Assembly: GCF_050920415.1 (NCBI RefSeq)
Contig: NZ_CP169309.1
From: Escherichia coli
GTDB taxonomy: Bacteria > Pseudomonadota > Gammaproteobacteria > Enterobacterales > Enterobacteriaceae
DNA length: 64,000 nt
Strand: one strand, 5' to 3'
Shown: piece by piece, positions 24,889-24,919 of the stretch
Layout of the letters: each line of letters starts with the position of its first letter
How positions within the stretch are numbered: position 1 is the first letter of the stretch
Program-made: the position numbers and the translations under genes
The notes under the pieces: generated by a model
What the model was told of the DNA's origin: nothing
What the model saw: the letters and a program-made list of their open reading frames with translations, nothing else
The model's database searches: none

Positions 24889-24919
24889 AGCATAGTCCTT
24901 CCCCTTACGGGAAGGTCAA
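24889..24919 (-). promoter_or_regulatory. cueO promoter with MerR-type (CueR) operator: -35 ttgacc, 19-bp spacer containing dyad ccttccc-N5-gggaagg, -10 tatgct
   Basis: Read on minus strand: ttgacc ttcccgtaaggggaaggac tatgct ~45 bp upstream of cueO ATG; 19-bp spacer is the MerR-family hallmark. Confidence 0.75.

Follow-up and report, generated by a model that had tools for sequence, protein, structure and literature searches.

The locus upstream of the copper oxidase gene cueO raises the question of whether the short stretch at positions 24889-24919, read on the minus strand of the window (the whole 64,000-nucleotide stretch of Escherichia coli DNA that was analyzed), is a promoter of the MerR type, and which regulator would act on it. 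We are nearly certain that it is the core promoter of cueO and as such a classical target of CueR. The sequence architecture, the identity with the K-12 promoter, the register common with the copA promoter (PcopA), the near-invariance within E. coli and the footprint in Enterobacterales were established in this study; CueR binding, copper induction and distortion of the DNA are taken from the literature. The gene cueO is one of the two classical CueR targets of E. coli. Its promoter (PcueO) is already known and is described here in another E. coli strain, which adds nothing new. The value of the case is that of a positive control, in which a textbook MerR-type copper-responsive promoter was recognized from raw sequence.

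Direct reading of the minus strand yielded the sequence cTTGACCttcccgtaaggggaaggacTATGCTcaacg. The promoter stretch ctgcggcTTGACCttcccgtaaggggaaggacTATGCTcaacgtttgattttgtttcgcctgcttaagaataaggaaataactATGcaacgtcgtgatttcttgaaa was likewise read directly from the minus strand, within the region 24700-25100. A preliminary description had located ttgacc, a 19-bp spacer and tatgct in this order 5′ of the cueO ATG on the minus strand, which proved exact to the base. The following features were assigned by direct reading and by the means given for each of them:

23293 to 24843, minus strand: cueO coding sequence, 516 amino acids, periplasmic multicopper oxidase with the twin-arginine N-terminus MQRRDFLK (translation, Pfam, annotation in matching genomes)
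24851 to 24855, minus strand: Shine-Dalgarno-like AAGGA, 7 nt 5′ of the ATG (read from the sequence, putative)
24879 to 24883, minus strand: expected transcription start (from the usual 6-9 nt between -10 and +1)
24889 to 24894, minus strand: -10 hexamer TATGCT (direct reading and pattern match)
24895 to 24913, minus strand: spacer of 19 bp, 2 bp over the sigma-70 optimum (counted)
24897 to 24915, no strand assigned: predicted CueR operator, dyad CCTTCCC-gtaag-GGGAAGG (inverted-repeat search)
24914 to 24919, minus strand: -35 hexamer TTGACC of the cueO promoter (direct reading and pattern match)
25009 to 25356, plus strand: yacC, divergent neighbor encoding a pilotin-like lipoprotein (annotation; Pfam PulS_OutS)

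The two arms of the dyad (24897-24903 and 24909-24915), as retrieved by the repeat search, comprise 7 nt each, are 100% complementary and lie 5 nt apart. The preliminary description had placed this repeat, ccttccc-N5-gggaagg, inside the spacer. It is indeed present and perfect, but not wholly contained there, as its opening CC represents the final two bases of TTGACC and the dyad thus overlaps the -35 hexamer by 2 bp. The -10 hexamer is separated from the cueO ATG by 45 nt and, judged by the position of the expected start, the 5′ UTR would be approximately 36-40 nt long. The dyad conforms exactly to CCTTCC-N7-GGAAGG, for which PMC8169799 (citing Yamamoto and Ishihama 2005) and PMC1526738 are the sources as the CueR core site. 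The description of the dyad as CueR-like was borne out by this match to the published core and by the identity of the promoter with that of K-12 (see below).

The composite TTGACC-N19-TATGCT has a single occurrence in the 64-kb window, and 100 dinucleotide-preserving shuffles did not produce it at all. Similarly, one exact CCTTCC-N7-GGAAGG was found in the window against 0.01 expected, and a single shuffle out of the 100 contained an exact core. Two additional candidate CueR boxes with two mismatches, at 23810 inside cueO and at 61698, were rejected, since sites of this quality occurred at chance level (three found versus 1.7 expected). A promoter scan of 24600-25500 on both strands did not reveal any canonical sigma-70 promoter with a 16-18-bp spacer.

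The gene downstream of the element was confirmed to be cueO by its translation into 516 amino acids, by three multicopper-oxidase domains (Cu-oxidase_3, Cu-oxidase_2 and Cu-oxidase), all scoring above the Pfam cut-offs, and by the annotation in matching genomes, i.e., NZ_CP169399.1 (strain MFDS1022581) and K-12, in which this open reading frame is designated cueO. A TAT_signal match to residues 1-20 of CueO reached 21.2 bits and remained below the Pfam cut-off of 22.7 bits. On the basis of its multicopper-oxidase domains and its annotation the product serves copper homeostasis, which fits a gene regulated by CueR. In MFDS1022581 and K-12 the gene order is gcd, cueO and then the divergent genes yacC-speE-speD. 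The intergenic region between yacC and cueO has 165 bp and the operator is located 94 bp from the yacC ATG.

Some further properties of the window and of the related MFDS1022581 chromosome were recorded. Compared by BLAST with this chromosome, which is otherwise approximately 99.99% identical, the window contains an insertion of 1276 bp at approximately 21925-23200. It is a copy of IS621 (IS110 family) residing in the convergent intergenic region of gcd and cueO, about 93 bp past the end of cueO (stop codon) and adjoining the REP-like sequence GCCTGATAAGCGTAGCGCATCAGGC. K-12-like genomes and MFDS1022581 lack a copy at this position 3′ of cueO. The transposase of the element (minus strand, start at 23008) can only be assembled from three reading frames, which amounts to two frameshifts. 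Either this IS621 copy is decayed or the sequence contains assembly errors. Of 5426 E. coli genomes, 2244 harbor IS621, the median being five copies per genome. Elsewhere in the window, aceF (35247-36115) harbors an internal tandem duplication of approximately 300 bp with about 80% identity, detected as a BLAST self-match; judged by position, it is compatible with the lipoyl domains, which are repeated in the E2 subunit. In NZ_CP169399.1, the annotation at the position corresponding to approximately 46101-47303 of the window presents hofC as a pseudogene with an internal stop.

The promoter was compared with that of K-12 MG1655. Promoter, 5′ UTR and gene start of cueO (yacK) are identical in both sequences, and within the 165 bp separating yacC and cueO only one base differs, which is positioned upstream of the promoter. 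Because the promoter is identical base for base, the literature on the K-12 promoter can be transferred directly. CueR controls copA and cueO according to PMC8169799, PMC5329002 and PMC9909328, which refer to Outten et al. 2000, to Stoyanov et al. 2001 and to Yamamoto and Ishihama 2005. According to the account of Outten et al. 2000 given in PMC8169799 and PMC5329002, the activation of cueO in K-12 depends on both CueR and copper. Reporter constructs such as PcueO-lacZ (PMC9396075) and PcueO-GFP (PMC13104621) are in routine use as read-outs of CueR, the latter having been run with and without copper in mutant strains (PMC13104621).

The second comparison, which the preliminary description had proposed as a check, concerned the copA promoter. 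K-12 PcopA reads TTGACC-ttccccttgctggaaggtt-TAACCT and contains TTGACC, CCTTCC-N7-GGAAGG and a 19-bp spacer as does PcueO of the window. When the copA promoter of MFDS1022581 was aligned with these two promoters, the match among the three was confined to CTTGACCTTCCC...GGAAGG..TA..CT in the same register. Hence, the comparison had the outcome suggested for it: PcopA of both K-12 and MFDS1022581 possesses the same -35 hexamer, core, 19-bp spacing and register, and in all three promoters the operator box begins at base 5 of the -35 hexamer. Differences were found in the central 7 bp, which are CCTTGCT in PcopA but CGTAAGG in PcueO, and in the -10 hexamer (TAACCT in PcopA versus TATGCT in PcueO), while the flanks of the two promoters are unrelated. 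Owing to the different central 7 bp the cueO dyad is a perfect 7+7 repeat. The common register is of importance with regard to the CueR-RNAP-PcopA complex solved by cryo-EM, in which an auxiliary contact is made with sigma-70 in its non-conserved region, and a shift of the operator by 1 bp is predicted to disturb the contact between CueR and sigma (PMC8169799). As to the surroundings of copA, ybaT in the copA-glsA-ybaT region of MFDS1022581 is immediately followed by siiEA, a gene of more than 20 kb for a BapA-related giant adhesin, and by a TolC-family gene (siiEA region: L128 1-17843; NZ_CP169399.1 3695604-3717842; outside the window). In K-12, cueR follows ybaT at the place where MFDS1022581 has siiEA.

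Attempts were also made to assess the conservation of the element. Within E. coli, a 55-bp query centered on the promoter gave 100% identity in 5257 of 5424 records, and a 401-bp query around the site matched 5424 of 5426 complete genomes, always at cueO and yacC. The PcopA core was detected in 5420 of 5426 genomes and cueR, whose gene lies outside the window and was searched for with the K-12 sequence, in 5424 of 5426 complete genomes. That promoter-like hexamers and a palindrome without any regulatory role became juxtaposed by chance can be dismissed and is effectively refuted by the conservation data, for although intergenic DNA is rich in short palindromes and in matches to hexamers and core sites with two mismatches appear elsewhere in the window at chance frequency, the composite was absent from all shuffles and the exact core present in one, the element is near-invariant in approximately 5400 E. 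coli genomes, and no other block 5′ of cueO is strongly conserved in Enterobacterales.

The latter result was obtained with orthologues sampled by coding sequence alone, so that the footprint could be tested without presupposing a promoter. A degenerate pattern for the CueO N-terminus (M-x-RRDFLKY) was applied to species-representative genomes and returned 120 loci, 69 of which were kept because their proteins were at least 60% identical to CueO of the window. They stem from genera including Escherichia, Citrobacter, Salmonella, Enterobacter, Kosakonia, Buttiauxella, Siccibacter, Cedecea and Morganella. For each orthologue the best match to the CueR box within 220 nt upstream was scored. A -35 hexamer, a 19-bp spacer bearing the dyad and a -10 hexamer were present at fixed offsets in 68 of the 69 cases, and since both hexamers flank the box at these offsets, the 19-bp spacing is invariant in the 68 orthologues. 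The -35 hexamer was TTGACC in 65 and TTGACG in three of the 69 loci; at the offset of the -10 hexamer TATGCT (45 loci), TAAGCT (17) and other TAnnCT sequences (six) occurred. Among the 62 distinct sequences, the information content per column amounted to 1.97 bits for the -35 hexamer, 1.74 for the -10 hexamer and 1.50 for the spacer between them, whereas the 40 nt upstream had 0.47 and the 30 nt downstream 0.58. The sole exception was Intestinirhabdus alba (L123), regarded as peculiar to its lineage, where the 600 nt preceding the cueO orthologue did not contain a recognizable CueR-type promoter with 19-bp spacer and the region 5′ of the gene is GC-rich and unrelated. In view of this species, the CueR-type element is not universal upstream of cueO.

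Conservation of the arms was not uniform. In most genera the right arm is slightly imperfect (GGGAGGG), and in some lineages both half-sites are altered symmetrically, yielding CCTTGCC-N5-GGCAGGG in Pseudescherichia and CCTTACC-N5-GGTAAGG in Buttiauxella. Altogether, variant CueR-type half-sites, several of them symmetric, were noticed at the loci L014, L025 and L118 (Pseudescherichia), L110 (Buttiauxella) and L072 and L029 (Morganella). Symmetric changes in the arms are the pattern that would be expected of a site read by a symmetric dimer, and the variant half-sites give a hint of lineage-specific drift of operator and regulator. One may go further and suppose that the DNA-recognition specificity of CueR has co-evolved with the operators in Pseudescherichia, Buttiauxella and Morganella and that, separately, the operator also governs yacC. 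We regard this combined proposal as improbable. Neither operator co-evolution nor a control of yacC would, if true, change the identity of the element in the window.

The DNA between the -35 hexamer of cueO and yacC contains an AT-rich block (24927-24950; minus strand ATTATTGTTGATTAAATTGTGT). An ATTATTG-like motif 5′ of the -35 hexamer is moderately conserved in other Enterobacteriaceae, with an offset of approximately 10 nt in Escherichia. The block could be a UP element for PcueO, or it could provide the -10 region (AATAAT, plus strand, 24943-24948) of a yacC promoter. This leads to the possibility that the CueR operator controls the divergent yacC besides cueO, which we consider decidedly improbable. 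The operator does reside in the intergenic region common to both genes, the AATAAT on the yacC strand belongs to a block with a similar motif in other genera, and a comparative genomics study counts cueO as well as a 'yacC-yacK divergon' among the loci that have CueR sites and promoters with a 19-bp spacer (PMC1526738). However, the divergon entry seems to be a repeated listing of the cueO (yacK) site, and the scan for sigma-70-like promoters described above was empty on the yacC strand, too. Moreover, a 19-bp-spacer promoter facing yacC is absent, a convincing -35/-10 pair overlapping the operator could not be discerned, and the conserved hexamers around the dyad point to cueO only.

An entirely different interpretation would be that the dyad acts as a nucleic-acid hairpin, i.e., as a terminator, an attenuator or a cruciform, and not as a binding site for a protein. 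With its GC-rich 7-bp stem and 5-nt loop the repeat has a suitable shape, and the T-G combination encountered at arm position 3 in many orthologues would become a G-U wobble if the cueO sense strand were present as RNA. In spite of this, the dyad was not called by a terminator scan of 24600-25500, and neither strand carries a T-run after the stem. An Rfam scan of 21000-26000 did not disclose any RNA family. Since the neighboring genes are divergent, there is no upstream gene transcribed toward the dyad, and being upstream of the inferred start the dyad would lie outside the cueO mRNA, which also counts against a hairpin. Furthermore, the arms are conserved in sequence beyond mere complementarity, nine of the 62 distinct sequences contain variants that cannot pair (e.g., C/A at arm position 5), and an operator embedded in a promoter accounts well for the constant register relative to the conserved -35 and -10 hexamers. 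A hairpin function is therefore highly unlikely.

Equally slight is the probability that the dyad serves another regulator of the MerR family, e.g., ZntR, SoxR or a GolS-like paralogue, instead of CueR. The half-sites of the ZntR and SoxR operators differ in sequence from those of CueR, and to our knowledge GolS is absent from E. coli. A spacer of 19-20 bp with an embedded dyad is indeed a family-wide character (PMC1526738, PMC9909328) and by itself compatible with each of these regulators. But the arms at this site agree exactly with the CueR core (PMC8169799), which is common to PcopA of the same species, and the downstream gene encodes a copper oxidase.

For the core promoter of cueO as a target of CueR, a mode of action can be proposed that follows published work on PcopA and on the MerR family. 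As the distance between the two hexamers is too great, and their helical phase wrong, for the sigma-70 RNA polymerase, the basal activity of the promoter should be low. CueR, a Cu(I)-sensing regulator of the MerR family whose gene would be located elsewhere on the chromosome, would bind as a dimer to CCTTCC-N7-GGAAGG on the face of the DNA opposite to the polymerase. Such an arrangement has been visualized by cryo-EM for the CueR-RNAP-PcopA complex, where the dimer clamps the bent 19-bp spacer from the face opposite to RNAP (PMC8169799). In the absence of copper, CueR would hold the DNA in an inactive form and the promoter would be repressed, in line with published work according to which apo-CueR keeps the DNA in a repressed shape. 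Upon binding of Cu(I), Ag(I) or Au(I) to CueR the spacer would be kinked and undertwisted, the hexamers might thereby be drawn closer together and re-phased, and an open complex could be formed from which cueO is transcribed. Kinking and undertwisting of the overlong spacer by Cu(I)-CueR, by which sigma-70 RNA polymerase engages both hexamers, are documented in the literature (PMC8169799, PMC9909328). The crystal and cryo-EM structures of CueR (PDB 4WLW, 4WLS, 6LDI and 6XH7) contain PcopA, not PcueO (PMC8169799, PMC9909328). The oxidase produced would probably be exported via the Tat pathway and oxidize Cu(I) in the periplasm.

The PcueO element is used in copper biosensors and is a model of activation by DNA distortion. 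In its overlong spacer and in the dyad placed between the hexamers it resembles other promoters of the MerR family, which has been reviewed in PMC9909328. Spacers of 19-20 bp with such a dyad also occur in the promoters of merT of Tn21/Tn501, zntA, soxS and golTS of Salmonella, and activation by distortion of the DNA from the face opposite to RNAP is common to the promoters of this family (PMC9909328, PMC1526738). What distinguishes PcueO from MerR-family promoters in general is the half-site, which is specific to the CueR/HmrR type, and the effector, which is Cu(I), Ag(I) or Au(I).
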